Of a DNA stretch of 64,000 nt, positions 9,717 through 46,492 are shown in pieces (positions within the stretch are counted from its first letter, which is position 1; every line of letters begins with the position of its first letter). The DNA is taken from the IMG/VR virus record IMGVR_UViG_3300025316_000011, positions 17,023-81,022 of that record, one strand, 5' to 3'. The position numbers were made by a program, and so were the translations under genes. Origin of the DNA: a virus. The notes beneath the pieces were generated by a model. That model was not told the origin of the DNA, ran no database searches, and worked only from the letters and a program-made list of their open reading frames with translations.

Positions 9717-11327
9717 TTAAATCCATGCAAGTACATACCACGAAGAAGTAGCGTGGTCACATCTTAGTTTGGCATAACCTCCGGCACCTGAAAGTACCAA
9801 AGTTGCTACGTCTGCTCCGGTTTTGTCCACAAAGACAGTATCTCCCGCGTTTTTAGCGATAGTCCCCGTATTGGCACCATATTGAGATAATTCTACTACA
9901 GTCCCATCGGTAAGAGTGGAAATCAATGGTAAAGTAGCGGTTTTTGACCCTCCCGTGGTGTCAAGGGTAATTTGGTTTGGAAGGTTGGCATCAGTAAAAA
10001 CGGTATTGGCAATGATGATGTTTGACGATATTACGTTACGGACAACGGCATCAAGTTGCCCCTGAATATCGGATGATACGTTGGTAAGGTAAGTTAATTT
10101 CCCCGCAGCGACACCCGAAGATACCATTAAGCCACCAGCATCCAAAGCAGGTATTGTCGAGGTTGCCAGCGTAGCCATTTTTGACCATGATAAGGCGGCA
10201 CCCGCAGACACGGAAGCATCCACGACTTTCCCTGTAAGTACCAAATCAGCAACTTCGAGGTCGAGGGATGAATTAACCCTTAGATATTTGTCTGATGAAG
10301 CCCCTAACGCAATGGCAGAGTACGAAGTACCGTTGAACCATAATACCGATTTAGCTGTCACAGTAGATCCTACCACGGCATCCATAAGCTGTTTAAAAGT
10401 AGGTGATATTACCTCCCCTGACGAGTTCATAATCATAGCGCCTGCCCCGGCCCCTGCACCACCGCCTCCACCGGGAGTAGCATCATATTTGAAAGTTCCT
10501 GTCACCCATAAGTCACCGGAGATTTTAACGAGGTATGCTGAATCAGCGGCACCACCAATGCCTAACCGTCCCCTCCACGTTGTTCCGTCATAGCAGATAA
10601 GGGTAGAACCGTTTAATCCTCCGTTGACACCGGCACCACCATAGATATAGGCAGAACCTCCTGTTTTAGGATTGGATGGGTCTAATCCCGCCCCACCAAC
10701 GAAATGAAGGTTTGAGCCATTGTTCCCTGTGGATGTTTTCGGGTTGATGTAAGCGTCAGCAGCATAGGTAAGCAGATACGAAGCTGCGGTAACGGGACCT
10801 GTCCCCATATCGAGGGAATCCCCTGATGTGACGGGAGTAATAACCGTAGCGGTATCTTTCCATACACTCCCCGACAATGCTGAATAAAGTAGTTTTTTAG
10901 GTTTGCCGGAATCAGCGGTATCGACAATAACAAGGAAATCCGTTGCTGCCAGGGTAGTCTTTGCTGTCAACGATGTAGGATCGAAGTCTATCTGGTAGTC
11001 AAGCCTGTCAGTTGCGGAAATGGCAGTTACCTTTATACCTTGGTAGGATGAATTACTCGAAAGGAGTTCCGTGCCATTAACCTGTAATGCCGGGAGATGG
11101 GATGGCAACACAACACCGTTACCACTACGGGCCTTACTTACTGCTGTCGTGGCGAGGGTCACGAGCCCCTGAAGTGTTTCAGTAGCATAGTCCCCGGATG
11201 AGACCTTAAAAGGTATGCTATCCATTAAATCCCTGAATGTGTTTTCTGACGGGATATTGTTGGCGTTGAATTTGGTTCCTGCCGTGGTACGTGGGGAATC
11301 GAAGAAAAAAGCCTTGTTGCGTTGCAT
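9717..11327 (-). CDS. putative tail fibre protein (no signal peptide)
   Basis: G/T/A-rich; IPSENTFRDLMDS N-terminus, ATETLQGLVTLAT repeat-type motif, LTYLTNVSSDIQGQLD coil, C-terminal beta domain. Confidence 0.7.
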   Translation of the reverse strand: MQRNKAFFFDSPRTTAGTKFNANNIPSENTFRDLMDSIPFKVSSGDYATETLQGLVTLATTAVSKARSGNGVVLPSHLPALQVNGTELLSSNSSYQGIKVTAISATDRLDYQIDFDPTSLTAKTTLAATDFLVIVDTADSGKPKKLLYSALSGSVWKDTATVITPVTSGDSLDMGTGPVTAASYLLTYAADAYINPKTSTGNNGSNLHFVGGAGLDPSNPKTGGSAYIYGGAGVNGGLNGSTLICYDGTTWRGRLGIGGAADSAYLVKISGDLWVTGTFKYDATPGGGGGAGAGAGAMIMNSSGEVISPTFKQLMDAVVGSTVTAKSVLWFNGTSYSAIALGASSDKYLRVNSSLDLEVADLVLTGKVVDASVSAGAALSWSKMATLATSTIPALDAGGLMVSSGVAAGKLTYLTNVSSDIQGQLDAVVRNVISSNIIIANTVFTDANLPNQITLDTTGGSKTATLPLISTLTDGTVVELSQYGANTGTIAKNAGDTVFVDKTGADVATLVLSGAGGYAKLRCDHATSSWYVLAWI

Positions 11328-11335: not shown

Positions 11336-11926
11336 TTATTTGAAAAGTAACCCTATTCTTACGTTTACGTATGTGCCATTGAGGTAAACTCCCCCAATCC
11401 CAACTGTCAACTGATCTTGTACTATAATCTGTCCACCTATCCCGATACCAGGAAAGTCTTTGAAGTTTCTCCCGACCATTTCAGCATATAACCCCCAATG
11501 GAGTAATTTGGCTTTGTAGGCGGGAGACTTACTGAAACAAGTGTCTGTTCTTAATGTTATCCTATCAATTTCTTTTGGGAATACAAAGTCTGAAAACGAT
11601 AAGTCGTTAAGGTTCCCTAATATATGTGCCGACCAATGAAACCTGATACCTTTTTGGTTGAAAGTAGAATCATACCAATTTTCACTGATCTCTTTTATGA
11701 TAGTGTCATGGATGATGGTTTTTACTGGAATGGGTTTTATCCTTATTTCAGCGGGAATATGAATAGTGTCATATAATATCACTGTATCTGCTTTTGCTGA
11801 CTTATAGGCCGTCACCTGATCTGAAAGTACATTTATCCTACTATTGGCTGAAATCACTTTGTAGCCAAGGAAACAGGCCAATGCTATCAAAATTCCTATC
11901 ACTACGTATGTTGCTATCTGTTTCAT
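11336..11926 (-). CDS. spanin-like membrane-anchored lysis protein
   Basis: N-terminal TM, short coil, DT(I/V) repeats, amphipathic beta C-terminus; downstream of the holin. Confidence 0.55.
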   Translation of the reverse strand: MKQIATYVVIGILIALACFLGYKVISANSRINVLSDQVTAYKSAKADTVILYDTIHIPAEIRIKPIPVKTIIHDTIIKEISENWYDSTFNQKGIRFHWSAHILGNLNDLSFSDFVFPKEIDRITLRTDTCFSKSPAYKAKLLHWGLYAEMVGRNFKDFPGIGIGGQIIVQDQLTVGIGGVYLNGTYVNVRIGLLFK

Positions 11927-11927: not shown

Positions 11928-12056
11928 TTAATAAATATGAGGTCTTTCTCTTGTGCAAATGCAAAATATGGCTAATGCGATGATTGCCAACACCAATAAT
12001 CCCACCCCGAAGTTCGGGGTAGGATTTGATGTGGAGTTTGTTGGTTGCGGTGTCAT
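11928..12056 (-). CDS. small membrane protein (42 aa)
   Basis: TAATG coupling to the holin stop; TM FGVGLLVLAIIALAIFCIC. Confidence 0.55.
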   Translation of the reverse strand: MTPQPTNSTSNPTPNFGVGLLVLAIIALAIFCICTRERPHIY

Positions 12057-12292
12057 TACGGTTTTTCGATAGTCAACGGCTGACCCGTTGAGTTCGTGAG
12101 GAAATTTTTGACCAAATAGGCAATTCCGGCACCTACCGCAGATAAAACGACTGGTTGCCAAAATACCCATGTGAAGGCAATGGTCCCTGCCTGTAATGCC
12201 TGATACACTCCGATTACTAATGCTGTGATAACAGCAAGGATAAATCCTTTTAATGCATCGAGCCAATTTAATGAAGCAAAATTTGAGTTCAT
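12056..12292 (-). CDS. putative holin
   Basis: 78 aa with two TM helices; LNWLDALKGFILAV...AYLVKNFLTNS. Confidence 0.7.
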   Translation of the reverse strand: MNSNFASLNWLDALKGFILAVITALVIGVYQALQAGTIAFTWVFWQPVVLSAVGAGIAYLVKNFLTNSTGQPLTIEKP

Positions 12293-12315: not shown

Positions 12316-12768
12316 CTAATTGTGTTTAATAATTATATCGGTAATCTTTGTCAAATTTTCTTTAAATAGTTCGGTAAGTATTTTAACACCACCTTCCGAC
12401 ACACTCATTTTATTTTCAAGGTAACTACGAGTAGTGGAAACTAAGTCCCGGAAGTCGTAAATGTTTTTTTCAAGTTTGGCGAGTTTAAGTTCATGCTGAT
12501 TATTGGTTATTTGCCATTCCTTATAAAATACCTGATCGTCTGTTTGAAGTTTGTTGAATTTCTCTGCTAAATTATCATGTTTTGTGATAGCTTTTTCAAC
12601 ATCGAGTATCAAAACTTCTTTTTGCTCCATAACGGTCTTTAAAAGATCCGCCACAGACTGTTTAATCTCCTTTTGATCGGTTTTAAGGTTCCAATAGGTA
12701 AGGGAAATAAACCCTACCATCCCGGTTACTAACCCCGATATTATCCAATAGGCAGTAGATTGTTCCAT
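12316..12768 (-). CDS. TM-anchored coiled-coil protein (lysis cassette)
   Basis: N-terminal TM followed by heptad-rich region. Confidence 0.7.
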   Translation of the reverse strand: MEQSTAYWIISGLVTGMVGFISLTYWNLKTDQKEIKQSVADLLKTVMEQKEVLILDVEKAITKHDNLAEKFNKLQTDDQVFYKEWQITNNQHELKLAKLEKNIYDFRDLVSTTRSYLENKMSVSEGGVKILTELFKENLTKITDIIIKHN

Positions 12769-13036: not shown

Positions 13037-13414
13037 TTATTCTTGTGATACCTTGATTTTATAATTTGGCTCAATGGCATCTTTGATTGCTTTTTTTAGT
13101 TTAATATCGCTAAAGAACCCATTCAACGCAGTCTGTATATCGGCAAACCTGATTTGAATTTTCACCTCTTTTACCAGGGTATCGCCAACACCGACAATCC
13201 TTTTTTTGGTTAGAGTTAGTTCAATGTTTGAACCATTCAGCGAAAAATACGATCCTGAATCGACTGCCTGAGTTGAAAACTGTCCAAGGTTCCATTCATA
13301 GATAAAACGCGAACCATGATAGGTTGTGTCAAGCACCACACCGGGATTTTTAATGGATTGCCCAAACCCTGATAATGTCACAAAACAAAGGATAATTAAT
13401 GTTGTTTTTTTCAT
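13037..13414 (-). CDS. secreted protein (Sec signal, Gln +1)
   Basis: true start MKKTTLIILCFVTLSGFG|Q. Confidence 0.75.
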   Translation of the reverse strand: MKKTTLIILCFVTLSGFGQSIKNPGVVLDTTYHGSRFIYEWNLGQFSTQAVDSGSYFSLNGSNIELTLTKKRIVGVGDTLVKEVKIQIRFADIQTALNGFFSDIKLKKAIKDAIEPNYKIKVSQE

Positions 13415-13416
13415 AG

Positions 13417-14484
13417 TTAGAATCCTGTTGAGAAAAGTAAAGAATTGAGAAATTTCCATCCTGAGTTAAAGCCCTGACTTGTTGAGTTGCTTCCAGCCAT
13501 CCACTCCCCCCCTGTGGCTGTGGAATAAGATATATTGCAAAATGATACGCGGGTAATACCTGTTGATTTTGTTATGGCCCACCCTGCCGTACCTGTCCCT
13601 GTTAATGTAATTCTATTGCCTGGGGTTCCGTTGATAGATAAGTTTGTAACTGTTTGTGTTGATCCATCTGTAAACTTTATAAATCGAGTAACGCTACTAT
13701 TAGTACCTAAAGTGGTAAATGTATTATTACCGGAAATAGTCATTCCTCCAGTTGTTAGTGTACCCTCCAAGTACACATTTTCAAATGTTTTACCATTCCC
13801 TTTAAACGCTGGATTACCCGCAGTAAATCGTAAAGTTGACCCTGTTCCTGTGAAAGTGAAATTGCTGCCATTTGTTGCAAAGTCTATTGCCCCGTTTGCA
13901 CTAAAATTAACATTTGCTGCGCCTGTAATAAGTGTTGAGGGATTGGTAGCGTCACTGATAGCAAATGTTTGAATAGTACATGGCTTCCCATTCAAATTAA
14001 TAGTGCCAATAGCTATTCTCATGCCTATACAACTAAGATTATCCATTATCTTTATCTCAGCACTTCCTCCTGACTTATAAAAATTTCCAATAGAAATACC
14101 GTTGCTGTACCAAGTAGCCGAAGAAGCATTCTGCATGAGAAATGTTGATGCCGTTATTGGCATTGTACCACTTAGATAAACATTCCCATAAATATTAACG
14201 TTAAAATTAGTACCATTACCTACAACCGTTCCTCTGAATCCATGACAATTCCAATCCAAACAGTTTATAATTCCAGTAATAGTGCAGGTGACATTCCCTG
14301 CTGCATAAGTAAAATAAAGATTATCAGAACTTGTAGGAAATGCAAGTGCAGTAGTCCATGATGTAGTATCGGTAGCGTAATTTGATAAGGTTGTACTGTT
14401 CCCATTCACGTTCTTCCAATAGTAATTCGTTGAAAATACGTTAAAAGAAATCAGTATTAATATTACAGTGGTTAGCTTTCTCAT
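13417..14484 (-). CDS. secreted beta-helix/adhesin-like protein
   Basis: true start MRKLTTVILILISFNVFS|TNYYW; G/T/N-rich beta repeats; ends NSGWKF. Confidence 0.75.
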   Translation of the reverse strand: MRKLTTVILILISFNVFSTNYYWKNVNGNSTTLSNYATDTTSWTTALAFPTSSDNLYFTYAAGNVTCTITGIINCLDWNCHGFRGTVVGNGTNFNVNIYGNVYLSGTMPITASTFLMQNASSATWYSNGISIGNFYKSGGSAEIKIMDNLSCIGMRIAIGTINLNGKPCTIQTFAISDATNPSTLITGAANVNFSANGAIDFATNGSNFTFTGTGSTLRFTAGNPAFKGNGKTFENVYLEGTLTTGGMTISGNNTFTTLGTNSSVTRFIKFTDGSTQTVTNLSINGTPGNRITLTGTGTAGWAITKSTGITRVSFCNISYSTATGGEWMAGSNSTSQGFNSGWKFLNSLLFSTGF

Positions 14485-14485
14485 G

Positions 14486-17400
14486 CTATTTAATATCTGC
14501 AATCTGTGAACATATATAAACTCCCCCAATATACTTTACAATTAGTAAGTCATTCGCCCCACTCGTATTTGTATAAACAGGGGTTACGCCACCGGGATAA
14601 GTAAACGTTGGGCTTGTAGCTACTGTGTACGTTGTGGTTGATGCCTCATGTGTCATTAATACAGACACTATCTGTCCAGCCACCATATTGCTAAACGTAT
14701 AGGTGCAATTTCCTGTCCTTGTTACTGTGAAATTATTGGAGGTAGAACAATCAAAGGTTATTGCCGTTCCTGAATTACCGGATGCAACAACATCTGAATA
14801 TAACCTACCTGTAACATTTACATTTCCCGTAAACTTTGCAGCCACATTAGTAGTTGCACCTGTTGGTGCCGCAACCTTTAATCCATATCCAGTTGTTACA
14901 TTGGTCAATGCCTTTGTCTCAACTGCGACTGCACAAGACTCTGTTAATGTTGTGTTGGTTCCTCCTGTTGGTGGTCCCTGAATAACCACTCCATCAGCAT
15001 CAGATATTGTCGTTGCACTCGTAGCTGTTAGTGTTGGGGTGGAAATTATAACGCTTCTCTGATTTGTAATTGCCCCTCCATTATGCTGAAGAGTACGAGC
15101 AAGGTTAATATTTACATCTGTTACCTCACTTCCCACATCAACACCTGATTGTGATCCTCCCGTCACGGATACTATATTAACCCCCGATCCCCCTGTAATT
15201 GATGGTTGTGTAACAATTAATTTTGGCGTGGTAATTTGAGTTGTGAAAGTTGGCGAACTTAAATTAGCTTTTAATACTAACTTGGTTGTCATGTCAAAAT
15301 AGGCTGCAAATTTCTTATTTACCCCTGTATCAGATGGTAATGATCTTAATCCTATTGCAGCCATAGTAGTGTAATATGCAGCAAGTTTTTTATTGGCTGA
15401 TGTATCGGCATATAACCAGTATGAGGACATCCCTGAAATTGGTTGATAATTTGCTCCCCACTCGTTTAATCCATCATACATTGCCTTGGGGGTGACATAC
15501 CCATGATGGTAAACGTTGCTATCAGCAAGATTAACATAAGTTCCCAATAGGGTGTGAGCATCAAAATATTTTCTGGTTATATATCCATAACTTGTGTTGG
15601 TATTACTATCTGCACGTTTAGGGAATAATGTAGCAGAGTGATAGTCCCCCCAATTAAAGGCTGTGACACCTTTGTTCTGTTTGGTTCTCCAATCAGTAAG
15701 AGTATCATTATTAATGGCAATAGTTCCCGTAGTTGTGATCGTTCCTCCTGTTAATGGTGAGGTTGTTGAAATTGATGTTACCGTTCCTGAACTTGATGAT
15801 TTATGGTCATTAAAATATTTTAATGTAATTGCATTAGCATTTGTATTTGAATCTGCTTTACTAAAATACAATCCTGCATGATTACCCCACCCATAAACAG
15901 TATCTAATCTATCTATTGAATTTCTAATGTTATAAAAGGGTTTATTGGAATTAACATTAATCATTGTTTCGGGTATAACATTATCTGCAACAATAGAAAA
16001 ATAAGCATAATCAGTTGTTGCTGTCACACCTCTAATGAAAACATGATGAACATCACTTGCTAATCTAATCGCTTGTGAAGACGATCCCGTTTGTTCTGAT
16101 ATATATGATCCACCGTCAATTACACATGAATCACCAGAAATAAATAAAACCAAACCATTTCCAGATGGGTATTTGGGTGAAAACCCACTGCAATTAATTA
16201 ACTTAGCACCCTTAGTAATTCCAGCTAATGAGTTTGTTCCAAATGCGGATATTTGAAATGCAGCAGGTGCTTTTGATTCCGCTGAACAGTTTACAAATGT
16301 TCCTCCTAATGATGATATTCCTTCTAATCCCCCTTCAAGTGCAACACCTACGCACCCATAAGCTATTGAATTATTATATCCCACCATACCCTCATCTGTA
16401 TGAGATAATCCCTTACAATAATATGCTATTGCACTATCGTAAGTGGGAGTTCCATTACCATTTAAAAAACCAACACCAGAATTTGCAGAAATTCCCATAT
16501 CATCGCCTTCACCAATACAGTTATATGCTCTTGCCAATTTACCTAAATTGGCAAACCCTGTTTGACCATGTGAAATACCCTCGCAAAATCTTGCCTCGCC
16601 TTGATTATCGAATGCCGCAGAATAAGGGTGTGTTGTTTCTGCGGTAGATTTAATTACTAATCCGCCCTCATTATAAATTCCAGATTGAACTAATGATGTG
16701 CCATAGCAATCATCTGCTTTCCCACCAGCATCAATATGAATCCCGTATCCCGAATTACTGTTTACCCAACAATCTACAGCATACCCATTGGCACTAACAT
16801 CTAATCCATAATTGCCTCCTGTTAACTTCGTAGCAAGTATTTTTGCACCTGTCAGCTTTCCACTTATCAATGCTCCGTAATTAGTTGTTGATTCAAATGT
16901 GACGTTGTTACAAGTTATTTCACTGCTTGTATTTGTGAGCCATAAACAGACATACTTTGTTGATTTAAAATAAAGATTTGACAATTGACAAATTACCTTT
17001 GTTCCATTATCCTTTACTGCCGTTAATGCTGTTGTATCAATAATGGTTACATTTTTGCCATATCCAAAGATATTAACCCCATTTTTTAGGGTAATCTTTT
17101 CGTAATATGTACCGGGATAAATGACGATTGAATAAGTTGAATCTGCCACAGTAAGTGCTGAATTTACTGTAAGGTATTTCTGACCCGAACCAACATAAAG
17201 TATTTTGTTTCCAATAGGCTGGAATGTCAATCCTGCATGATAAGGAGTTAAATATCCTCTAATACTATCTTCCTTATGAAGAAGCAAAGCTGTATCAACT
17301 GAAGGAAGTTGTGTTAAGTCATATTGTGTTGCATATCCACCCATTCTTACACTATCTTTCTTATGAACAAGTAAAGATGTGTCTGTTGCAGGAGGGATTG

Positions 17401-17800
17401 TAGGCTTATCTGTTAAAGAATTATACGACTTTTCATCGAGATTAGCAAGGCTATCATGATTACTCATAGTTCTATAAGAACCTTTGGGTTGATATAATGT
17501 AGCAGCCTGAGTTTTTCTCAGGAATAACATAGTGTCAATTATCCCACCCCCAATAGACCCCACAGAGACAACCCATCCCATTCTGTACATGGTAGTCATG
17601 GAATCATTGACGGAAGTATTAGTATGAGTAAACTGATACTGCCTACGAGGTACGCTATCGGATAGTACAACGACCTGTGTGGCAGCAAAGATAGCCCCTA
17701 ACTTAGTTCTGTTGTTTGGTAAGGTGAGAATAGGTTTTGTGTTCTGTCCCGCCGCCATAAGGCTAAAAAGGCATAAAGCTATAAATACTAATTTTCTCAT
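14486..17800 (-). CDS. signal-peptide-bearing tailspike/fibre-like protein with pectin-lyase-like beta helix
   Basis: MRKLVFIALCLFSLMAAG|Q; VGSGQKYLTVNSAL...IYPGTYYE beta-helix cap; YGWGNHA/FNWGD fibre motifs; GTVTSI linker; C-terminal ITFDCSTSNNF domain. Confidence 0.75.
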   Translation of the reverse strand: MRKLVFIALCLFSLMAAGQNTKPILTLPNNRTKLGAIFAATQVVVLSDSVPRRQYQFTHTNTSVNDSMTTMYRMGWVVSVGSIGGGIIDTMLFLRKTQAATLYQPKGSYRTMSNHDSLANLDEKSYNSLTDKPTIPPATDTSLLVHKKDSVRMGGYATQYDLTQLPSVDTALLLHKEDSIRGYLTPYHAGLTFQPIGNKILYVGSGQKYLTVNSALTVADSTYSIVIYPGTYYEKITLKNGVNIFGYGKNVTIIDTTALTAVKDNGTKVICQLSNLYFKSTKYVCLWLTNTSSEITCNNVTFESTTNYGALISGKLTGAKILATKLTGGNYGLDVSANGYAVDCWVNSNSGYGIHIDAGGKADDCYGTSLVQSGIYNEGGLVIKSTAETTHPYSAAFDNQGEARFCEGISHGQTGFANLGKLARAYNCIGEGDDMGISANSGVGFLNGNGTPTYDSAIAYYCKGLSHTDEGMVGYNNSIAYGCVGVALEGGLEGISSLGGTFVNCSAESKAPAAFQISAFGTNSLAGITKGAKLINCSGFSPKYPSGNGLVLFISGDSCVIDGGSYISEQTGSSSQAIRLASDVHHVFIRGVTATTDYAYFSIVADNVIPETMINVNSNKPFYNIRNSIDRLDTVYGWGNHAGLYFSKADSNTNANAITLKYFNDHKSSSSGTVTSISTTSPLTGGTITTTGTIAINNDTLTDWRTKQNKGVTAFNWGDYHSATLFPKRADSNTNTSYGYITRKYFDAHTLLGTYVNLADSNVYHHGYVTPKAMYDGLNEWGANYQPISGMSSYWLYADTSANKKLAAYYTTMAAIGLRSLPSDTGVNKKFAAYFDMTTKLVLKANLSSPTFTTQITTPKLIVTQPSITGGSGVNIVSVTGGSQSGVDVGSEVTDVNINLARTLQHNGGAITNQRSVIISTPTLTATSATTISDADGVVIQGPPTGGTNTTLTESCAVAVETKALTNVTTGYGLKVAAPTGATTNVAAKFTGNVNVTGRLYSDVVASGNSGTAITFDCSTSNNFTVTRTGNCTYTFSNMVAGQIVSVLMTHEASTTTYTVATSPTFTYPGGVTPVYTNTSGANDLLIVKYIGGVYICSQIADIK

Positions 17801-17802: not shown

Positions 17803-18621
17803 TTATAGTTTTTCAAAGATAAATTCTATGTTAAAGATAGCGTTGTTCCAATCGTCTCCCACCCCTGCATGGTGAAGGTAAATAGTTGTAGGAGTTGTCA
17901 GGGAGAAAGTCTTATTCACCGCAATGGTAGTCAACCCTTTCGTAGTAAGATCGAGCAGGTTCATCCCTGAACAGGCAAAACATTCATTACCTCCCGAAGT
18001 GATCCCCATACTTAGCTGCGCCCAATTAGCGGTCTTATTCTCAAAGACAACATCATTGAATTTGTAGTTTCCCGGAATCAAATTGAGAAATACCGAATCG
18101 GCTGAAATGTTGGTTTTGGTTGCTTTGACGGTACAGCATGAATTGGTGATATTGTTTATGATATATGTAGTAAATGACTGCCATACATTAACAGGGACAG
18201 TAGTTGTGGCAAATCCCGTCGTTTGACCTGAATTACCCCTTATGTGGAATGGGTTCACCGCACCCTGGATTATCATGCTGCCGATACCTCCATTTGAAGT
18301 ATCTCCAATGTACACGTTGATAAGGTCGGCAATGGTCTTGCCTTCAATCCCGGTACATTGTAGTTGCTTTTGGATTTTGTCAATGCAATAGAGTGTCCGG
18401 TAATAACTTAATGGATAAAACAAGCCATTGATAAGGTCTATTTCCCGTTGCTGTTCGATAATATCCAAATAAAACCATAGGTTATGAAGCAGCGATAATC
18501 TCCGGGATTCAGTAACCTTTTTACCCATCACGAAGTCACGTATCATGTCATTGGATATCGACACTACGTAAGGGTGCGCTATTTGCCAATATGCCGTTTG
18601 CTGTTGTTCCCGGACTGTCAT
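17803..18621 (-). CDS. putative tail hub/fibre attachment protein
   Basis: helical N-domain, GIGSMIIQG..PF motif, beta C-domain; lies between cargo and fibre genes. Confidence 0.5.
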   Translation of the reverse strand: MTVREQQQTAYWQIAHPYVVSISNDMIRDFVMGKKVTESRRLSLLHNLWFYLDIIEQQREIDLINGLFYPLSYYRTLYCIDKIQKQLQCTGIEGKTIADLINVYIGDTSNGGIGSMIIQGAVNPFHIRGNSGQTTGFATTTVPVNVWQSFTTYIINNITNSCCTVKATKTNISADSVFLNLIPGNYKFNDVVFENKTANWAQLSMGITSGGNECFACSGMNLLDLTTKGLTTIAVNKTFSLTTPTTIYLHHAGVGDDWNNAIFNIEFIFEKL

Positions 18622-18623
18622 GG

Positions 18624-19712
18624 TTAACAGGTTATATTGATGTTATTGCTCCCTCCGCATAATCCGCAGCGGTCGGTGACTATCTTTAACTTGTCGATCA
18701 TTTGACCGATGTCAGTCAAAAGATCACTCTCGCTTTTAGTGATAGGGTATAATCCTACATACTGGCTTTTCTGTAAATACACCATTTGGTTGATGCTCGT
18801 CACCAGTTCCCGTATCATCAGCAAGTCATGTTTTTTGGCCTTATTATCATCACAGTCGTCACATGGATCATCGCAGGTACAAAGTGTGTACTTAAACAAC
18901 TTCGTGTAACAGGCATTGGCTTTACATGTTTCAAGGATAGGTATGGTAACGACAATCCATGATGTAGGAGTAGGTATATGCTGTTGGTTGCCATTGTTGA
19001 CATAGGCAAGTTCAAATGTGTATGACCCGTCACCATAGGCAGAAAGGTCGATTATCACCGTAGTCCCGGCAAAGGGCAATCCCTCAACCAACAACGTACC
19101 ATCGTAGTTATAAAGCCTTGTCCGAACAACGACACACGATATGTTTATTGCTACCTCCCATTTCAGGCAGTCCGTCTTGGAAAGGACAAAAGCATCTCGG
19201 TCGATAAAGGTTATTGCCGTGGTTGCTATCGAAGTTGCCCCTACTGCCGCAACGGACAACCCTGCCAATGCGTAAATATCGGCAATGGTAAGGGCGGTAT
19301 ATACATAACTCCCTATTGTAAGCGGTTGCCCTACGACAAGCGGGGAGAAATCAGTAACATCGAGTGCGGGATTGGTCCCCGAAGATGAAGGGTTGATAGT
19401 CCCGGTAGTAGTCTTGATATAGAATACCCCGTTATAAAACACTATCCCGAATTGACCGAAATCAATATTATTCAGTGCATCCCATGTGTAGTTATACAGG
19501 GCATAGACTGATATCGTCTGCTGCGCCCCTACGGGGACACTCCATGAATCGGCATTGGATTGGTCAACATTGAAATCGGCGGCAAAGGCATCACTTGACC
19601 AGAATACCATTATCCCTGTCAAATCGCGTTCCCCCGCGGCATAAGGGGTAATGTCGCTGATACCTAAGTACCCATCGAGTGACTTGTCTAAAGAAATTAC
19701 GGGTGTAACCAT
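18624..19712 (-). CDS. putative tail hub protein with Cys-rich C-terminus
   Basis: beta-rich N-part, CTCDDPCDDC...CGLCGG...C; ATG at 19712. Confidence 0.55.
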   Translation of the reverse strand: MVTPVISLDKSLDGYLGISDITPYAAGERDLTGIMVFWSSDAFAADFNVDQSNADSWSVPVGAQQTISVYALYNYTWDALNNIDFGQFGIVFYNGVFYIKTTTGTINPSSSGTNPALDVTDFSPLVVGQPLTIGSYVYTALTIADIYALAGLSVAAVGATSIATTAITFIDRDAFVLSKTDCLKWEVAINISCVVVRTRLYNYDGTLLVEGLPFAGTTVIIDLSAYGDGSYTFELAYVNNGNQQHIPTPTSWIVVTIPILETCKANACYTKLFKYTLCTCDDPCDDCDDNKAKKHDLLMIRELVTSINQMVYLQKSQYVGLYPITKSESDLLTDIGQMIDKLKIVTDRCGLCGGSNNINITC

Positions 19713-19717
19713 GTCCA

Positions 19718-19749
19718 CAAAATTAAGAAAAATTCATACTACTGTCAAA
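19718..19749 (-). promoter_or_regulatory. Bacteroidota promoter for hub/fibre/lysis genes
   Basis: minus strand TTTG-20nt-TAATTTTG. Confidence 0.75.
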
Positions 19750-22700
19750 TTAAGGAGTGGTTAAGGCTACTGCCCTCTTATACCCTCCGTACACTCCTAA
19801 TGTCCCTGCGAGAACGCTGAATTTCTTCTGTCCAAGTCCTACTTCTGTAAGTCTCAATGTCGTACCTAAAATTGGAATAGGGTTTTTCATCCATTCTTCG
19901 GAAGCATAACCAAGCATAAGTTCGCTGTAAAGGTATGAATACTTCTGCTGGTCCTTCTTTGTCAATGTCCCGATGAAATACACCAACCCGGCTAAAGCCC
20001 CAGCATAGACAAGGCTGCGGCCTAAGTTGATACGCCTGTGAGTAGGTAAACTCTGCCAATACTTTAACGGGTCTTTCATGTTTTTAAAATCCCGTAAGTC
20101 GTGGATTACGTGTCTCCATGACTGAAAATGACCTTCCATGATATTCATTTCCCATTTTGTCATGGTGTTGCCTTCTTCATCAAGATATGGGACCCACCTT
20201 CCCCCTCCAATGGTTTCACCTGTCTTTGCATTGACACCAAGATTATTCAAATGTGGCATCATAAACATTCTGAACATCCCGACCATTTTACCCTTCCACC
20301 CGTTTGTCATCAATGCCTTTGTAGCATCGTCAATCCCTACATATACGAACTGTGAAGCATACCATTTGTAATGATTGTTCACAATATCCCAATCGTCTCC
20401 CCTGTCAGGGATAATGTCGCTATCACTCATTTCACCCTGTGACTTTAACCTTTCCGTAAGGGCATTATACATAGCCTTCTGTTTGGCAGATTGGCTCCCA
20501 TCGGAGTTGAAGTACCTCTTGTCTTTAAATCGGTCCCATGCTAAGTCCCCCGACTTAGCATCCACAGAATAGGCTTCCCATGCCCCGTTATGGATAAGTT
20601 GAGACACCAGAGAATGTACCCGCATCGTTTGGTCAACGGAGTTATCAGGTAACATCCCCCATGCTGCGGATAAAGCATTTTTCTTAACACTTAGGTTCTC
20701 CATCGGAGAATGAAGTAGGCTATCCTCCGTCTGATTCCAATAGTGAAACTTCCGGGCAATGGCCCATACCTTTCTACGGTTGGAGAACATTTTACCTGCT
20801 GCCTTTAAGTGGTCAGCCATAGTAGGTAGTATTTCACTCCTTAATTCCTCCGGCATTCCAATATTAGCGGCTGATTGAGCAATGGCATTAACGGTTGATT
20901 TGAATGCTCCCGCGATAAGAACTTTAGGCGCCGTTACGAACCTATACATCAGCAAAATGTTAGTCATGCCACGCATGGCGGTATTGGCTACGTCGGCTGT
21001 TTCCACGGGACCGATAAGCGGAACATCAATAGTTCCTCCGTTATCCCGTTTGTCTGCATTCTGTTTATTGACATAACGGTTAAAGTATTCCTCCATAAAT
21101 TCCCTTGTATGGCGAAGGTTTACGTTGTTGGAATTTTCCCATCCGGTCATTAAAGCCATCTGCGTATTATACTCCGGCAGGAACTCATTGCCAATCATTT
21201 CATCCCTGATACCTTTAAGCATAAAGTAGTTGCCGATTTTCTCAATGTCGTGAGAAGCCTTTTCGTTAAGGTCAGGGTCAAAAAGTTCAAAATGTGAAGT
21301 ATTCCCATCCCTTACCTCTACCAATCCTATCTTTTCATGTGTCTTTGAAGGGTCAAGCATTTGTTGGTTAATACTGCTGAACAACTTGGTCATGCTTTTA
21401 TCCTTGGTGACATCGGTGAAAATCTGGTCCGGTGCTTGGATATTGTCAAAGTATTTCTTCAACCCCTCTTTGAACTTACCCTGCATAAGCATTTCGTTGG
21501 CTGATTTGTCGATTACAGGAATATGACCTTTTGGTGCACGGGAGTTCATGTCGTTAAACTGCTGCTCGGCATCCTCCCATGTAAATTCGCTGATATTCAA
21601 ATCATCATGCTCGCTGCCTATTTCGGTAAATTGATGCTGCCAGTAAATGTCTGCTATGGTACGCTTTCTCATTTCATCGTACATGGCATTGGTGAGTTCA
21701 AGGTCGGCATCGGTAATCTTCCCTTTGTCATATAATGGCTTTGTTTCGGGGTCATTCTTGTCCATGTGGAGAACTGTTCCCCGCACCGTTACCTTATCAC
21801 CCTTTTTGTAGGATTTCCCACCATAGGTCAAGTCCTTACCCGCAACAACGTCCATATCCTTATAGAGATGGTCGAAGTATAAGTTTCCTGCGGTTCCGAC
21901 AAATGGCTGTGCTTTAATGCCATGTTGCGCCACTACCTTCTCAAGCAATGGGAATATCTTTTCATGGTATTTCCAATATGCCGATACGGTACGTTCGATA
22001 GACATTTGCATGGCCCCTGCGGAAGCCTGGATAAAGCTGCTGCGCTGTACCAATGGAGAAGGAATGTTTTCAAGTCCCCCCCCTTTTATGTCAGCGATTT
22101 GGTTTGCCGTCTCAATATGACCAAATCCTGTTCCCGGCCTTTTGAGTTCATCCAACGTGGCACTTACAAGTTGATAGATAGGGTCAGCAAACTTCTCTGT
22201 GTCGCTGCCTATCTTATGGTCTAATACCCTCTGCCATTCTGTTAAGGCTTTTATCTTTGCCTGTTTTGAACCTTTGGTGAGTAAGTCCCGCCTTGCTACG
22301 ACAGATTCCCTTTTCGTGTCAAATTCTTCGTAAGGGTCCATCATTTCTTCCTGATTGGAGAGATATTCACTAAGCTGGTTGATGAAAGGGGTGCGCAGTT
22401 TATCATTCTCTATCCGCTTGTTTTGGATGATACCACGGATAGTGATGCTCCCTACCATATCCATAAATTCAGGTTGTGCCTTTAAAATGTCAAGTATCTT
22501 ACCAATATCCTCAATGCTGTTTACCTGATAAGGCTTAACGCTGTTTTTACGTGTCTCAATGACTGATAACTTTCTGAAGGTAGCATCCATGCCTAACGCT
22601 TGCATCCCAATCATGAGTTTCCGGTAGCTATACATGCTGTCATTGTATTCTGCGGGGCCGCCTAATTTGCGATATTTCTTATCATCCATGATATCCCCCA

Positions 22701-25700
22701 AAATGTTCCGTTGCCTACCAATGACGGCATCCGTTCCCTGACCATAGGAGGTAACATCGAATATAGATACGTCAGCCTTCCCGTTTTTGTCAAATCCATG
22801 AACAACAACGATAGGGTCATAACCTTTTAAATCGTCTTTATACAATGACCTGAAACGTGGGTCTGCGTGTTCCGGCAGTTGGGAGTACCTCACTACGTCC
22901 ATGGCTCCCTGTTCAATACCAAGTAGGTTGATAAGGGTTTTAAGTACCTGTGGGTTGTAGTCTTTTAATCCTACCGTTGAAGCAATATCAGAAATGGTAG
23001 CCTGTTTACTGTTATGAGTAGCAGATAACCCAATAGGGGTATTGGCAAAAGATATGAAGTTCTGTATAAGTTCAGGTACTTTCCCGTCAATCATAGGATA
23101 TTTGGGTGTAACCTGGTTATGAATGGCTTCTTTTAACTTCTCGTCAGTATCGTATTTGTCAGCAGGGAAAACAGTCTGATGGGTTCCTTCGTTGTAATAA
23201 TAGTTACCCCTTGCATTTACTCCCGTCTTTTTAACTTCATTGAAGATTTCATCGGTGACTTCTTCCGGTGTGAGTTTTGAGAACCGTAAAGAATCAGCGT
23301 GATCTGATGCTAAATGAAGTGTAAGGTCGCTAATGTCCAATACAGGCATCTTTGCGGATCTGCTTTCAGCCTTACCCATTTTGTCAATGACTTTCATCTC
23401 GTCAGGGGTGAATGTGAACTTGTCTCCTTTTAATACCTGATTGGTGAAATCTTTAAAGAACTTTTCTAAGTCAGGGTTTCCAATGTCAAACCCGTCTTTT
23501 AATCCGAGTATGCCTTTTAACCCATTCCATAATTCGGTGACATAACGCTTCACGTTCTCATAGATACGTGTGGCGAAGGTTTTATCCGTCTCCGGTATCT
23601 TACTGTCACTTTCCCGTAAAAAGCGTTCTACGGCAGGAATAGAGGTAAACCCTCCCATGGTAGCCATCACTTCGTCAATGTGCTGCTGCCCGTCAAGTTC
23701 GGGATAAGTAATCTTTATCTGTTCCGATAATTTGGCAACATCGTTCCCCCCCTGACTGATAGCATCCTTCACGTAGTTTTCAAATTCAGCATACTTTTCG
23801 GGATTACGTGACTTATACACGGCATTCCATATATGCTGTAACTCATGTACCCCTGTGGATGATGTTACCTTGTCAATGTTGTAATGTATTCCCTGTCCAT
23901 CGACATATCCCCTTGCTGTTGGGCTAATACCTTTTTCCCGTAACGAATCGGAATCTTCCTTAATGAAGTTAAGTTGTTCAAACTGACCTTTTATTTTGTC
24001 AAGCAGGATTTCAAATGATTGTTGAACAACACGGTTATCTTGGATTTTGTTAAGGTCAATAGGCTTTTGAAATAGGGGCAATCCCTGTGCTACTTCATCA
24101 CGCATTTTGGGGGTAATGTCAATAGAATGTTGAGTTGTTGAACCATTAATTTTACGTTCGGATTCTATGGCAATTTCTTGTAATGTCTTTTGTATTGCTT
24201 CCTTAGATAGTTGATTCCCTACATCTATCGGAATTGTAGATAGAACGTCATCATTCCATGCACGTAATTGGTAGTCTCCAGTATGAGGTGATTTAACCAC
24301 AAACGAATCTGTAAAATCATTTTCATTTATAAGCCTTTTTGTACCAATATCTTTTGTTTTCACACTCCCCTTGCCCCACAAACCTTCTGCAACCTGACCG
24401 ACAATGCCTAATTTGCCTTCTGCCGGACTTCCGTAGAAACCTATCATGCCTTTGCCACCAACCTTAATATCCTGACCCGTCAAACTACGCAAAGTTCCTT
24501 TTGGTTCTTGTGCCATAAGTTTTTCAGCAACGTCCTTACCAATAATATCAGGCAAATCTTTAGGTTGAACTCCCGTTCTCTCTATTACAGTATTTCCATC
24601 ATGGTCGTATGCTTTAAGATTGCTACCGCTATAATGAATTTCGTTTATTTTCTTTGACAAATCATACCGTTCATTCTGCTGTTCACCCGTTGTCCAACTG
24701 ATACTTTCTGCACCTTCTTTTATAGCCTGTTTCAACGCAACTTTCAATCCAAGTTTTGTCCATGCTGTCGTTTCGGTGACGAAAGGGGCATGAGTATGTT
24801 TACTCTTGTTAGCATCTTTATTTAAAGTTTCTAACGCATTTTTAATCGCTTCTTCTTTTGTATTTCCTGAATCAAACACGAAATCTTGGGTTGCCCTGTC
24901 ATACCCTTTCGGGGCAGTTATTTTCCAATAATCCTCAAATTTAGTTGGAGGTTCTACTATGAATCCTGTTGGTAATTCAGTTATGCTGTTGGGTTCTTTA
25001 AACCCTTCTTTTTTCCCTTTCTGCCCCCAATCTGACTGAATTTCATCAACAAATAAAACTTTCTTTCCGTTAACGTCAACACGGGTGCTTAACCTTAAAT
25101 GTGCCAAAATGTTATGTTCATCGAAATGGGATGAACGGTAATAAAAATCCCTGCTTGCTAACACATACGAACGTGTATTGCGCTGTTGTGCATCGTTGAG
25201 TTCATCGTAAGGTACATTGTACTGTACGAAAGCCATTTGTTGAAGTTCATCGGTAGTAGGTTCCTTCGGTGGTAACGTTATCAATACCTCTTTGTAGTTC
25301 TCTTTGTCTCCGGGGAGTTGGTACGCCGAATATTTTGTTTGTGATTTTTCACGTTCTTCCTTACTTGTAAGTTTAGTCCTTATTTCATTATTTCTTAATT
25401 CTAATTTCACAAGTTGATCGAATGCTTTTTCTGGTATATATGTCGGTTTCTCCCCTCCATTTTTAATGAAATGATCTACGTCACCCCATATTTCATCTGC
25501 AAAATGTGTGTAATTAGAATCCCGTTCAACTCTACTAAAAATAGCATTTTTTGCGTTTATGATTAAATCATATTCTTCTTGTAATTTAACCTCATTATCT
25601 CCTTTTGAAACTTCCCGAATATCAATCCGGTTATCCTTCATCCATTGCTGGATTTCCCCTCTACTGAAAGTCTTTGAAGGGTTAGCCTTTAACATATCAT

Positions 25701-36763: not shown

Positions 36764-36798
36764 CAAATATATACTTTTACTATATTAAAGTCAACAAA
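36764..36798 (-). promoter_or_regulatory. Bacteroidota promoter for groES/cargo genes
   Basis: minus strand TTG-20nt-TATATTTGCA. Confidence 0.75.
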
Positions 36799-45187: not shown

Positions 45188-46492
45188 TTACATTTTAAAA
45201 AGGTTGCTGACAAAATTAACGTCCCCGGCAAGGTCTGGCTTGTTGTATAACTGCATCCAATCATCCATGTTTGGGGTGTCCTGCTCTATGCCTTCCCCTG
45301 CTGATCGTGTGCCTGTTGTTGGTGTCTTTGGTAATGGCTTGTTTAAACTTGGCAAAGTGGTCCGCTGAACCGGGAATAAAGTAGTTTTCCCCGGTATCTC
45401 CAACTCCCTGTTTGACTTCTGATAACTTGTCATATCAGCCAACGAAGGAGTTAGATTCTGCGGTAATCCCGGTGGGGTCATTTTGGATTTGTATGACGGG
45501 TCAAACCATCTCCTTATTTCCCCTACCGTTATCTGCTGATCTTTGTCAACGTCAATGGCAGGGTTTAATTTGGCTAACTTTGCTCTTGATTGTTGGTCCG
45601 TCCCAATAGCGTAATCATCCGATTTACCTAATGCAGCGGGATACATATTCGCTATGTAAAGGTCCGATGGTTGTTTTATCTTGTCTTTATACTGGTTCCA
45701 ATATTTAAAGGCAAAAGGCAACTGCTCGGATGCTGTCATGTGCCGCAGTTCTTCGGCAGAAGTCCCCATAGCTTTTGCCGTGGAATCAATCATCTGAACG
45801 ATACCGCTTGCGGACCCATGTGGATTATGTGCGGAGGAATCACCACCGCTTTCGATATGAATAAGCCTGTTAACCCAATCCTTGTTTATCCCTGATTTCT
45901 TGGATAAAGATTCGAGGACGGAGTTAAATTCAGGATCATCCATTGCTTGATGTTTTACACCACCAGCGGCAAATACTTTTCTTGGTTGATCGTCAGCGGC
46001 AGAATATGGGTCCATTAAGGCGGTGCTTGCTCCACCACTTGCATTCTTAATCCCATTCTTACCTTTGGGACTTTGCATTTTATATTTAAACTGTTGTTTA
46101 TCCCCTAACTCACTCCATGTAGGATTATCAATAATAGTATCATTTGATCCTTTTTTACGATATTCCCTAACGTCCCCGAAATTAACACCTTTTGCTGATG
46201 AAGGATATTCTCTCATTTCTGCACCCGGACCCATTGGCACCCATTCATAAGGTGTTGGGACCATGCTTTTCATTGGATGCCTTAACAACGTATTGTTATT
46301 GGATGAGGGGATTCCTGTTGATAGAATAGGCTGCATTGGGATTAATGAGTTTGATGATAAATCAATATCATTAACAATCCCACCCGCTGCTTTATGCGAA
46401 GAATATTTTGCCCCGCCAATCTGCCTTTTTTTGGCATTTAGCAGGTCCATCCGGTTTCCGGTAGTGCTTTTCTTGCGTTTATGGGAGTACAT
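45188..46492 (-). CDS. virion cargo protein with lytic transglycosylase (SLT-like) domain
   Basis: LIHIESGGDSSAHNP..SASGIVQMIDSTA...EQL..A.KY...DLY.A..YP. Confidence 0.8.
   Translation of the reverse strand: MYSHKRKKSTTGNRMDLLNAKKRQIGGAKYSSHKAAGGIVNDIDLSSNSLIPMQPILSTGIPSSNNNTLLRHPMKSMVPTPYEWVPMGPGAEMREYPSSAKGVNFGDVREYRKKGSNDTIIDNPTWSELGDKQQFKYKMQSPKGKNGIKNASGGASTALMDPYSAADDQPRKVFAAGGVKHQAMDDPEFNSVLESLSKKSGINKDWVNRLIHIESGGDSSAHNPHGSASGIVQMIDSTAKAMGTSAEELRHMTASEQLPFAFKYWNQYKDKIKQPSDLYIANMYPAALGKSDDYAIGTDQQSRAKLAKLNPAIDVDKDQQITVGEIRRWFDPSYKSKMTPPGLPQNLTPSLADMTSYQKSNRELEIPGKTTLFPVQRTTLPSLNKPLPKTPTTGTRSAGEGIEQDTPNMDDWMQLYNKPDLAGDVNFVSNLFKM

Follow-up and report, generated by a model that had tools for sequence, protein, structure and literature searches.

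Does a tailed phage of Bacteroidota send part of its fibre apparatus through the periplasm? The question is raised by three consecutive late genes (A, B and C) of an uncultured lake phage, each of which begins with an 18-residue Sec-type leader. In the textbook view, tailed phages are assembled wholly in the cytoplasm. The stretch of DNA that was analysed (the window) covers 64 kb of the 81-kb genome, which is that of a crAss-like phage.

Locus and gene order

In the genome, genes for terminase, portal, capsid and muzzle are followed by a giant cargo gene, two small genes and A-B-C; the cassette is thus found at the distal end of the phage tail module. Gene A (14486–17800, minus strand) encodes a leader-bearing fibre-like protein of 1104 amino acids (aa). 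Gene B (13417–14484, minus strand) encodes 355 aa, with an 18-residue leader and a single right-handed parallel β-helix module, and gene C (13037–13414, minus strand) encodes 125 aa, with an 18-residue leader and a small conserved protein without an assigned fold. The true ATG of B (14484) lies 15 codons within an open reading frame (ORF) that begins with TTG, and the gene ends at 13417; C runs from its ATG at 13414 to 13037. The three genes are separated by 1–2 nt, inside a long late operon.

Directly upstream of A, two leaderless genes (17803–19718, minus strand) encode candidate tail adaptors of 272 aa and 364 aa; the C-terminus of the longer one is rich in Cys. A match (19718–19749, minus strand) to the Bacteroidota-type promoter consensus TTTG-N-TAnnTTTG lies between the 364-aa gene and the giant gene and may show where transcription of the unit with A-B-C begins; this evidence is weak, because the window contains five matches where 3.2 are expected. 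Scans for sigma-70-type promoters gave numbers at chance (36 against 33.9; 7 against 8.1).

On the other side of the cassette, a 150-aa protein (12316–12768, minus strand) that combines a membrane helix at the N-terminus with an extended charged helical part is spanin-like by eye, and a 78-aa protein (12056–12292, minus strand) with two hydrophobic helices is holin-like by eye; a 13-bp hairpin (11998–12026) lies after the latter gene. These are accompanied by a 196-aa protein (11336–11926, minus strand) with an N-terminal membrane anchor of about 20 residues and by a 536-aa fibre-like protein (9717–11327, minus strand), the sole leaderless fibre candidate near the cassette. Two more leader-bearing genes (60272–61322, minus strand), for proteins of 112 aa (GFC↓Q) and 236 aa (VFA↓Q), are located just upstream of the terminase genes.

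Leader peptides

Leaders were called by using our own hydrophobicity/charge heuristic, and the split after residue 18 is our own reading. The leaders occupy residues 1–18 and end in AAG↓Q in A (17747–17800, minus strand; Gln19 at +1), in VFS↓T in B (14431–14484, minus strand; Thr at +1) and in GFG↓Q in C (13361–13414, minus strand). Each N-terminus has a positively charged n-region with two Lys/Arg residues (RK in A and B, KK in C), a hydrophobic core of 14 residues, which is inside the range of about 7–15 expected of such leaders, and a small residue at both −3 and −1. Such cores are too short for membrane anchors, in contrast to that of the protein at 11336–11926. Eight of the 98 non-overlapping ORFs in the 81-kb genome were flagged by the scan, namely five leader genes, this longer membrane anchor and two short doubtful ORFs outside the window. 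Gln is found at +1 in four of the five leader proteins (A, C and both 60272–61322 products), B being the exception. The predicted leaders of A, B and C are of the canonical Bacteroidota Q-rule type for Sec and signal peptidase I. A reading of this DNA from the sequence alone (the sequence-only reading) had described signal peptides on three consecutive late genes and on two more at 60272–61322; the translations agree with the former, and both of the latter were flagged. A, B and C were rejected as lipoproteins (signal peptidase II) for want of a lipobox Cys after the leader; a Cys in the 112-aa protein stands at −1 of its G-F-C↓Q site, an arrangement unlike a typical lipobox.

The same reading had made its case depend on conservation of the leaders, which was found in relatives of all three genes. 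All four database relatives of A have a leader followed by Gln; among the 149 representatives that match A, 22 are leader-like, 18 of them with a small residue and Gln at the site. Three full-length relatives of C have leaders, the sequence of which drifts among the homologues without loss of the hydrophobic core or the G/C-Q site, and the closest relatives of B (P0009 and P0010) carry leaders as well. Judged by these comparisons, the predicted leaders are conserved in kind.

Fibre architecture of A

The leader of A is followed by a sequon-rich stalk (residues 19–195) with the motif SNHDSL..DEKSYNSLTDKPT, a Cys-rich block (residues ∼196–640) with 71% identity to P0004, fibre repeats (residues 641–850), a widespread fibre domain (residues 851–1000) and a tip (residues ∼1000–1104). 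The repeats are marked by YGWGNHA (residues 636–642) and GTVTSI (residues 672–677). Searches with the fibre domains gave 1362 matches at E<0.001; PHROG domains for tail fiber or tail spike are present in some of the partners, and virion proteins of cyanophages are among the matches. No match to A was obtained in Pfam, PHROGs, NCBIfam or PDB sequences, and none to the B family with hhalign (probability 1%). The fibre hallmarks that had been named earlier were confirmed as far as WGNHA and GTVTSI are concerned; a β-helix was modelled for B only, and for A it stays conjectural. Assignment of A as a phage tail-fibre-type protein is supported by its domain matches.

Family and fold of B

The model of B (pLDDT 87.4) is a tailspike-like β-helix that resembles tailspike depolymerases and autotransporter passengers (Z 13–15 over 280–298 residues), and nine phage matches were found in BFVD. 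Polysaccharide lyases, epimerases and adhesins share this fold just as tailspikes do, and the periplasmic enzymes AlgG and VexL are among them. Among 64 homologues, 46 begin without a leader at the conserved motif MA[ND]RYWVGG and six have a leader. One leaderless family member opens a 925-aa protein of the Methylophilaceae phage P19250A, where it is immediately preceded by genes for host-specificity protein J and a tail fibre. Sequence and model thus support B as a putative member of a tailspike family, with a leader placed before the family's usual N-terminus; that the leader precedes a motif with which most homologues begin supports export.

Modules of the B type also occur in tandem in Bacteroidota proteins of 1000–5000 aa with leaders and Por_Secre_tail (80 kept of 219 relatives). 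These cellular type IX secretion system (T9SS) proteins share the leader-module junction with B: in L026 and L029 a leader that ends in A-Q directly precedes YYWVGG and a B-type β-helix module. In contrast to them, B is one module without a sorting domain, and it shares 34–40% identity with leaderless stand-alone proteins against 25–29% with the cellular modules. A, B and C as T9SS cargo were rejected, as no match to Por_Secre_tail, TIGR04183 or TIGR04131 was obtained with Pfam and NCBIfam at E up to 0.1; the Pfam library that missed them detected the sorting domain in L026, L029 and one ORF of the contig L081.

Gene C and relatives of the cassette

C accompanies A and B in L081, a MAG contig. 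No paralogues of A, B or C, leaderless ones included, were found in the genome. Seven of nine IMG/VR ORFs with the fibre motif start with leaders and are followed by one to three more leader genes; one of these fibre-motif ORFs is placed after a tape measure gene. No common docking domain was found after the leaders, which are followed by several unrelated N-terminal families instead.

O-glycosylation motifs

The general O-glycosylation motif of Bacteroidota, D[ST][AILVMT], is modified in proteins that are exposed to the periplasm. It occurs 20 times in the five leader proteins against 7.0 expected (2.9×), a number reached by 0 of 5000 shuffles, and 58 times in the other 92 ORFs against 70.0 expected (0.83×). 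Two of three control motifs were flat; the reversed motif was mildly enriched (12 against 6.9, P 0.04). A contains 12 sequons (4.6 expected), nine of them within residues 48–255, whereas B contains one (0.8 expected) and is not enriched. One sequon falls inside a conserved fibre motif (DSL). The anchored protein at 11336–11926 has four such motifs against 0.5 expected. The enrichment in leader-bearing proteins supports export.

Cultured phages and known systems

The leader-on-fibre pattern is not unique to the window and is already present in GenBank records of 2013. Cellulophaga baltica phages phi18:3 (KC821620, Pachyviridae; gp085–087), phi10:1 (KC821618, Assiduviridae; gp091–095) and phi46:3 (KC821622; gp079–083) resemble the present cassette in having runs of three to five large late leader genes at the end of the tail genes, with leaders of 18–21 residues followed by Gln; some of the proteins are annotated as pectate lyase. 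The runs of phi18:3 and phi46:3 have small membrane proteins and a lysin-like glycosyl hydrolase downstream. These phages differ from the lake phage in family and in their marine habitat. GenBank notes of the type "structural protein, experimental MS/MS" are attached to phi18:3 gp085–087 and phi10:1 gp091–094, and all seven proteins have Q-rule leaders. They favour virion association by analogy only, because no sequence similarity was detected between A, B or C and the Cellulophaga leader proteins, and MS/MS of gradient-purified phage can include co-purifying envelope fragments. In a literature search, the leaders of these structural proteins were not mentioned in any text found, and no paper was found on leader-bearing phage fibres as a pattern.

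Classical tailspikes and fibres share several traits with the cassette: their genes stand at the end of the tail module, P22 gp9, Phi92 gp150, CBA120 TSP3, K64-1 S2-4 and phi29 gp12 have the β-helix fold of B (Z 13.9–15.0), and A is built of modules, its tip being exchangeable. The classical proteins lack a leader and are joined to the particle in the cytoplasm, whereas A, B and C all bear one. T5 Llp, lambda Lom and Bor, and the o-spanins are encoded by phages, exported by Sec and active at the envelope, and some lie among tail genes, but they are small lipoproteins or outer-membrane barrels without fibre architecture, several with their own promoters. In Porphyromonas gingivalis phages, genes with Q-rule leaders have been read as using the host Sec pathway (Matrishin et al. 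2023, PMC10367356); in the passages of that paper that treat them, these five genes of unknown function are proposed to modify the outer membrane and are not called fibre-like. The MAT fibres of Bdellovibrio, as far as described in the sections on them (Caulton et al. 2024, PMC10769870), are phage-fibre-like trimers with signal peptides (21 of 21) that work outside the cytoplasm, in which they resemble the predicted products of A, B and C and lend feasibility to the proposed route; they differ as cellular proteins on the predator's own surface and by a common domain of ∼130 aa after the leader, which is absent from the phage proteins here. Leaderless tail proteins of Maribacter phage Molly share a tip domain with the leader-bearing fibre L092, so the leader is dispensable for that fibre type in this phylum.

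Proposed route and alternatives

Predicted export of A, B and C is well supported, and three leader-bearing fibre-type parts probably mature outside the cytoplasm. The sequence-only reading had proposed appendages that are exported, modified by the host and docked on virions during or after lysis, or that act at the envelope; its predicted export and the fibre character of A and B are supported by the leaders, homology, the fold of B and the motif enrichment. That the cassette encodes tail fibres that are exported, matured in the periplasm and joined to the particle late is given an even chance. A, B and C would be made with a Sec leader, cross the inner membrane unfolded and be cleaved by signal peptidase I; the host would cyclise Gln19 of A and C to pyroglutamate, and folding would take place in the periplasm, where host O-glycosylation very probably would decorate the N-terminal stalk of A. 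By analogy with the MS/MS-annotated Cellulophaga proteins, all three would be true virion appendages, with A as a long fibre that binds the receptor by its tip, B as a β-helix spike and C as an assembly factor or small partner. Particles without fibres would be built in the cytoplasm and would not meet the fibres until the inner membrane is opened by the products of the nearby holin-like and spanin-like genes, or until lysis has taken place. Tailspikes and fibres come last in assembly, and P22 and T4 particles can take them up in vitro; we know of no tailed phage with late, extracytoplasmic fibre attachment.

Every argument for export counts equally for proteins that are not virion parts and act on the envelope of the infected cell or, after lysis, on the surroundings; this is the main rival reading, and we consider it somewhat unlikely. 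They could be depolymerases or adhesins that strip or mask capsule or surface-glycan receptors, keep progeny off debris, exclude superinfection or sensitise neighbouring cells; the periplasmic route would in that case do no more than harden soluble proteins (pyroglutamate, glycans, disulfides). The holin-like and spanin-like neighbours (as in phi18:3 and phi46:3), the lyase, epimerase and adhesin relatives of the B fold and the envelope action of T5 Llp and lambda Lom/Bor fit such roles, as does the leaderless protein at 9717–11327, which could be the real receptor-binding protein and so speaks against A-B-C as virion fibres. The P. gingivalis phage proteins point the same way, being read as host surface modifiers in the part of that paper concerned (PMC10367356). 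Against this, seven analogous proteins from two phage families are annotated as structural by MS/MS, A has the architecture of a complete fibre with a tip domain, no leaderless paralogue could serve the virion in its place, and the predicted co-transcription with structural genes would be late for exclusion; in addition, as they have no T9SS sorting domain, the proteins could not reach the cell surface before lysis by a known route.

Hydrophobic N-termini that do not lead to export (a tether on the cytoplasmic face of the inner membrane, a segment buried in the tail, a bypassed start or Sec shut off late) are considered improbable. A does contain an in-frame Met15, from which a leaderless protein could start (MAAGQ...), but one lake contig has Val in its place (depth 3.4, possible error), B has no Met before residue 107 and C no second Met anywhere; the core length, the small −3/−1 residues and the frequent Gln at +1 match the cleaved leaders of the host rather than anchors, the junction of B recurs in cellular T9SS proteins, and the enrichment of a periplasmic glycosylation motif would be left unexplained. 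Even less credit, very little indeed, is given to the idea that the cassette has nothing to do with the virion, being either a fragment captured from the gene for a host surface protein (a T9SS adhesin) or a moron that a prophage expresses to the host's advantage. Such an origin would suit the tandem B-type modules of leader-bearing Por_Secre_tail proteins, the lower G+C content of the cassette region (0.375–0.381 against about 0.42–0.44) and L081, where the cassette adjoins a truncated Dam-type methylase and ordinary bacterial genes; however, B resembles leaderless stand-alone proteins and phage proteins more closely than the cellular modules, no sorting domain is present, the domains of A are phage fibre domains, and, with only 1–2 nt between the genes of the putative late operon, a separate promoter for the cassette would have no intergenic space.

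Implications

A wider claim, which we hold at slightly less than an even chance, is that many Bacteroidota phages from at least three morphologically different groups (crAss-like phages, Pachyviridae and Assiduviridae) use a two-compartment route, in which heads and tails are put together in the cytoplasm and exported, pyroglutamate-trimmed and host-glycosylated fibres, spikes and helpers are snapped on at holin opening; the receptor-binding parts of the virion would in that case bear glycans made by the host. A Sec-routed fibre would add an extra compartment and a late docking step to the assembly of tailed phages, and would make the host signal peptidase, glutaminyl cyclase and O-glycosylation system phage assembly factors. 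If the proposed route is true, abundant Bacteroidota phages of the environment and the gut, including crAss-like ones, would have glycoproteins as receptor-binding proteins, which would bear on host-range prediction, on the expression of fibres for structural work and on annotation, where the presence of a leader currently counts against calling a protein structural. Should they be exported effectors instead, the proteins would make up a large and so far unstudied class of envelope-acting phage proteins derived from fibres. With the cultured Cellulophaga phages, the question is testable now.

Leader-bearing genes of the cassette

The sequence-only reading had described three consecutive genes of the fibre locus with signal peptides, and these were recovered as A (14486-17800; 1104 aa), B (13417-14484; 355 aa) and C (13037-13414; 125 aa). 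The genes are separated by gaps of 1–2 nt, and A starts 2 nt past the preceding gene. Each N-terminus is a Sec-type leader in which two basic residues precede a hydrophobic core of 14 residues and a small-x-small site ends at residue 18; the +1 residues agree with those reported earlier (Gln in A and C, as in the Q-rule leaders of Bacteroidota, and Thr in B), the cleavage sites being our own reading of the sequence. B and C lie inside longer ORFs, and Met-Lys/Arg starts 1–2 nt beyond the upstream stop codon yield the conserved proteins. Position 17758 differs in one lake-metagenome contig (depth 3.4), where Met15 of the leader of A is read as Val; the change is conservative and removes the sole ATG able to give a leaderless A (GTG can start too), and it may be an assembly error.

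A crude leader scan of the whole genome flagged eight of 98 non-overlapping ORFs. These were A, B and C, the two further leader genes already proposed at 60272-61322, a 196-aa protein (11336-11926) with a longer, membrane-anchor-like core, and, outside the window, two short ORFs of doubtful status. The 236-aa leader protein at 60612-61322 (minus strand) has Atlas neighbours in viral clusters with Mtd_N and phage-tail trimerisation domains, at scores of 0.83–0.88 and TM <0.5, which makes them leads only.

Genomic setting and source

The window covers bases 17023-81022 of one contig of 81,022 bp. It contains one long late gene block on the minus strand, which includes the large terminase (57459-59594), the portal (54818-57445), a Crassvirus-type major capsid protein (52054-53517), a 434-aa SLT/hub-like protein (45188-46492), a weak match to the Crassvirus muzzle (38827-43077) and a 4884-aa ORF (19750-34404). 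GenBank phages yielded no tblastn match when queried with A, B, the capsid protein or a leaderless 536-aa fibre-like protein (9717-11327), and no relative was retrieved from IMG/VR in scans that used A and the capsid protein. We read the source as a divergent crAss-like freshwater phage; the leaders, together with nearest relatives in Bacteroidota MAGs, point to Bacteroidota as the host phylum. Apart from the possible source sample, three metagenome studies of lakes and fresh water contain DNA near-identical to the A-B-C cassette. The lake contigs span the stretch in pieces only, and uncovered parts are uninformative. No RNA dataset was listed with the stretch.

The 4884-aa protein contains no cysteine, and neither do the nearby 630-aa (34416-36308), 670-aa (36811-38823) and 434-aa proteins, against 1.5–3% in the tail-end proteins. 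The cysteine-free proteins may be ejected or need to stay unfolded; cysteine content fails to separate the leader proteins from other tail proteins. Upstream of A, a 364-aa protein (18624-19718, minus strand) has a C-terminal stretch dense in cysteine (11 Cys in total, several CxxC-like pairs) and had no match in a family search. For the cassette neighbours, family searches returned sub-threshold rows in Pfam and nothing in PHROGs.

The Bacteroidota-type promoter motif TTTG-N17-23-TAnnTTTG has five matches in the window against 3.2 expected, which is not above chance, and scans for sigma-70 promoters and terminators also remained at chance level. Three of them, at 19718-19749, 36764-36798 and 63039-63068, fall between genes and on the strand that encodes the late block; the one at 19718-19749 may start the transcription unit of the cassette. 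These three are among the five promoter-motif matches. A 13-bp G+C-rich hairpin at 11998-12026 (minus strand), with no clear T-tail, lies between a holin-like gene and the gene of the 196-aa protein.

Conservation of the leaders

The leaders proved to be conserved in relatives of A and C. Four relatives of A besides itself were retrieved by searching 5.8 billion proteins, and all four have a leader followed by Gln. An exhaustive profile search gave 1362 matches at E<0.001, most of which align to residues 850-1000 and the tip; among the best 149 of these, 22 have a leader-like start by our own rule (a small residue and Gln in 18 of the 22), and the N-termini of the remaining 127 are like those of ordinary phage fibres. 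C has four relatives; the three of full length vary in leader sequence and keep the hydrophobic core and the G/C-Q junction, a pattern that would be expected of a working leader. For B, the motif M-A-[ND]-R-Y-W-V-G-G forms the N-terminus in 46 of 64 homologues and is preceded by a leader in six; the other 12 are fragments or start differently. B is the clearest case of a leader added to a family otherwise without it.

Fibre ancestry and fold

Family searches with A, B and C returned sub-threshold rows in Pfam and nothing in PHROGs, NCBIfam or by PDB sequence. Cultured phages that infect Betaproteobacteria have leaderless modules of the B type: in Methylophilaceae phage P19250A such a module opens a 925-aa protein encoded right after "host specificity protein J" and "tail fiber protein", and Limnohabitans phage DC31 has four places matching the B family. 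One DC31 match (L082 9001-10008, equal to PQ492658.1 3113-4120) covers 98% of the query; only small CDSs on the other strand are annotated there, and the B-type gene is seemingly unannotated.

The AlphaFold model of B (pLDDT 87.4, pTM 0.83) is a right-handed parallel beta-helix from residue 20, with residues 2-13 as a separate helix. Its top VIA-align match is an autotransporter passenger, followed by the depolymerase tailspikes K64-1 S2-4, Phi92 gp150 and CBA120 TSP3 and by phi29 gp12 (Z 13.9–15.1 across 282–298 residues). Nine phage matches at E≤0.001 were obtained in BFVD, and Foldseek against the PDB gave nothing at that threshold. The 850-1000 domain of A was linked to tail fibres by PHROG tail fiber/tail spike domains in three of nine partner proteins tested, and P0073, a leader-bearing relative, gave matches to tail fibre proteins and virion structural proteins of cyanophages. 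The central Cys-rich block of A is 71% identical to P0004 and was not assignable to a fold by Pfam, PDB sequence, NCBIfam or hhalign against the B family; as hhalign of A against the B family gave a probability of 1%, a beta-helix in A stays an unconfirmed candidate. No similarity was found between A and the 536-aa fibre. The predicted fold of C (pLDDT 39.7) was unusable, and the Atlas held no usable match for it. A and B come from virion fibre families.

The B module in host proteins

A search of 185,579 species genomes located the B module in 219 places of Bacteroidota-dominated genomes, 80 of which were kept; it forms tandem repeats there within proteins of 1000–5000 aa. The module is a beta-helix of about 340 aa with the signature YYWVGGxGxW...NNTGW (e.g. 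L003, L021, L030 and L058 among loci L001-L080) and corresponds to no Pfam or NCBIfam model. In the cellular proteins the first module follows a leader ending in A-Q, 1–2 residues ahead of the YYWVGG motif, the same junction as in B, and both cellular proteins tested end in a Por_Secre_tail sorting domain.

An origin of the B leader by capture of a T9SS gene from the host was rejected because of the sequence identities: 34–40% to leaderless stand-alone proteins (E 1e-31 to 1e-39) versus 25–29% to cellular modules (E 5e-15 at best). Searches of Pfam and NCBIfam gave no T9SS sorting domain in A, B or C. Because B is nearer to the leaderless stand-alone proteins and has no sorting domain, it is not a captured host adhesin; judged by these comparisons, B is a putative spike of phage type to which a leader of the host kind has been added.

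O-glycosylation motifs

The general O-glycosylation system of Bacteroidota recognises the motif D-(S/T)-(A/I/L/V/M/T). The five leader proteins contain 20 such motifs versus 7.0 expected from shuffles of each protein, and at least 20 were reached in none of 5000 shuffles. The other 92 ORFs (24,024 aa) contain 58 versus 70.0 expected, and the 4884-aa protein six versus 15.8. Control motifs with Glu or Asn replacing Asp were flat, and the reversed motif was mildly raised (12 versus 6.9). A has 12 motifs versus 4.6 expected, nine of them within residues 48-255, the membrane-anchored 196-aa protein four versus 0.5, and B one versus 0.8. DSL at position 116 of A is part of a fibre repeat that is itself conserved, so some of the motifs may not be glycosylation sites. 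The enrichment in the leader proteins is a second signal that would fit a periplasmic life.

Related layouts in other loci

IMG/VR was scanned with the back-translated fibre motif DEKSYNSLTDKP, which gave nine loci. The ORF holding DEKSYNSLTDKP starts with a leader in seven, is cut at its 5′ end in one and has no leader in one. In L086, L087/L088, L090 and L092 between one and three further genes with leaders come after a big leader-bearing fibre. Ahead of the L092 fibre gene are those of a tape measure protein and of a virion structural protein, which indicates a long-tailed phage. The genes after the fibre at L087/L088 7149-7673 and L092 712-2529, on unrelated viral contigs, share their start (a leader, then QKLPI[DT]GLCL) and are candidates for a conserved exported helper.

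In a contig from a Bacteroidota MAG (L081 1-2514; JBAXOB010000037.1), the C-terminus of an A homologue is followed by homologues of B (63% identical) and C (66%), an order which indicates that the cassette moves as a unit. Beyond C lie a D12-class (Dam-type) adenine methylase cut to 182 aa and ordinary bacterial genes (HlyD, AcrB, a T9SS cargo protein and Nramp); the site is either a prophage edge or remnant, or an assembly junction in a chimeric contig.

A division into leader-bearing forms only in Bacteroidota and leaderless forms only in other phyla was rejected, since Maribacter phage Molly has leaderless fibres. The tip domain of the L092 fibre, which bears a leader, recurs in tail proteins of Molly that have none, and this counts against a general rule.

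MS/MS-annotated Cellulophaga proteins

In Cellulophaga phage phi18:3 (KC821620), gp085, gp086 and gp087 are annotated in GenBank as "structural protein" from experimental MS/MS proteomics; their leaders end in S|Q, A|Q and A|Q, and small membrane proteins and a glycosyl hydrolase lie downstream. Phage phi10:1 (KC821618), of a different family, carries the same note on gp091-094, all four with leaders; tail genes lie upstream, and the next gene, a pectate lyase, also bears a leader. Phage phi46:3 has five leader-bearing genes in a row. None of these leader proteins shows detectable sequence similarity to A, B or C and the evidence consists of GenBank notes, so the virion argument for A-B-C is one of analogy.

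Proposed mechanism and alternatives

The sequence-only reading had asked whether the fibre-locus proteins pass through the periplasm to the virion or act at the envelope. Export and cleavage of A, B and C are highly probable given the sequence evidence; that the N-termini go unused for export is unlikely. A and B would then be folded and modified in the periplasm and bind particles once the inner membrane opens, with C as partner or helper. By analogy with the Cellulophaga phages, we favour, at about even odds, the reading that A and B are true virion appendages that join particles in this way. Fibre-like trimers can be Sec-exported, as in the 21 Bdellovibrio MAT fibres, all of which have signal peptides according to PMC10769870. 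The cassette is followed directly by a membrane-helix and coiled-coil protein (12316-12768), then by a two-helix holin-like protein (12056-12292) and the anchored 196-aa protein (11336-11926), and phi18:3 and phi46:3 show the same neighbourhood beside their leader genes. Fibre assembly factors are commonly encoded downstream of the fibre genes themselves; if the fibre is exported, its helper would have to carry a leader too, in keeping with the observed runs of genes with leaders.

The main alternative, possible and of lower probability, is that A, B and C are exported effectors (depolymerase, adhesin or receptor mask), in which case the leaderless 536-aa protein (9717-11327) would serve as the virion fibre; the fibre ancestry of A and B and the MS/MS-annotated leader proteins speak for appendages. 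The phage genome holds no paralogues of A, B or C, which are therefore not exported copies of leaderless virion proteins. A host-derived moron is very improbable in view of the distance of B from the cellular modules, even with the cassette present in a Bacteroidota MAG.

Relation to earlier work

In P. gingivalis phages, Q-rule leaders on genes of unknown function are read as marking surface modifiers (PMC10367356), and according to the Hankyphage paper (PMC6199706) phage DGR target proteins have no signal peptides. The literature searched on phage fibres or structural proteins, signal peptides and Bacteroidota contained no description of leader-bearing tail fibres of tailed phages. The raw facts on leader-bearing structural proteins have been in GenBank since the Cellulophaga records were filed. 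The present analysis adds the B family, with a leader visibly bolted onto a family otherwise without one, its link to host T9SS proteins together with its distance from them, the A-B-C cassette in a MAG and, with phi10:1, a second phage family with MS/MS-annotated leader proteins.
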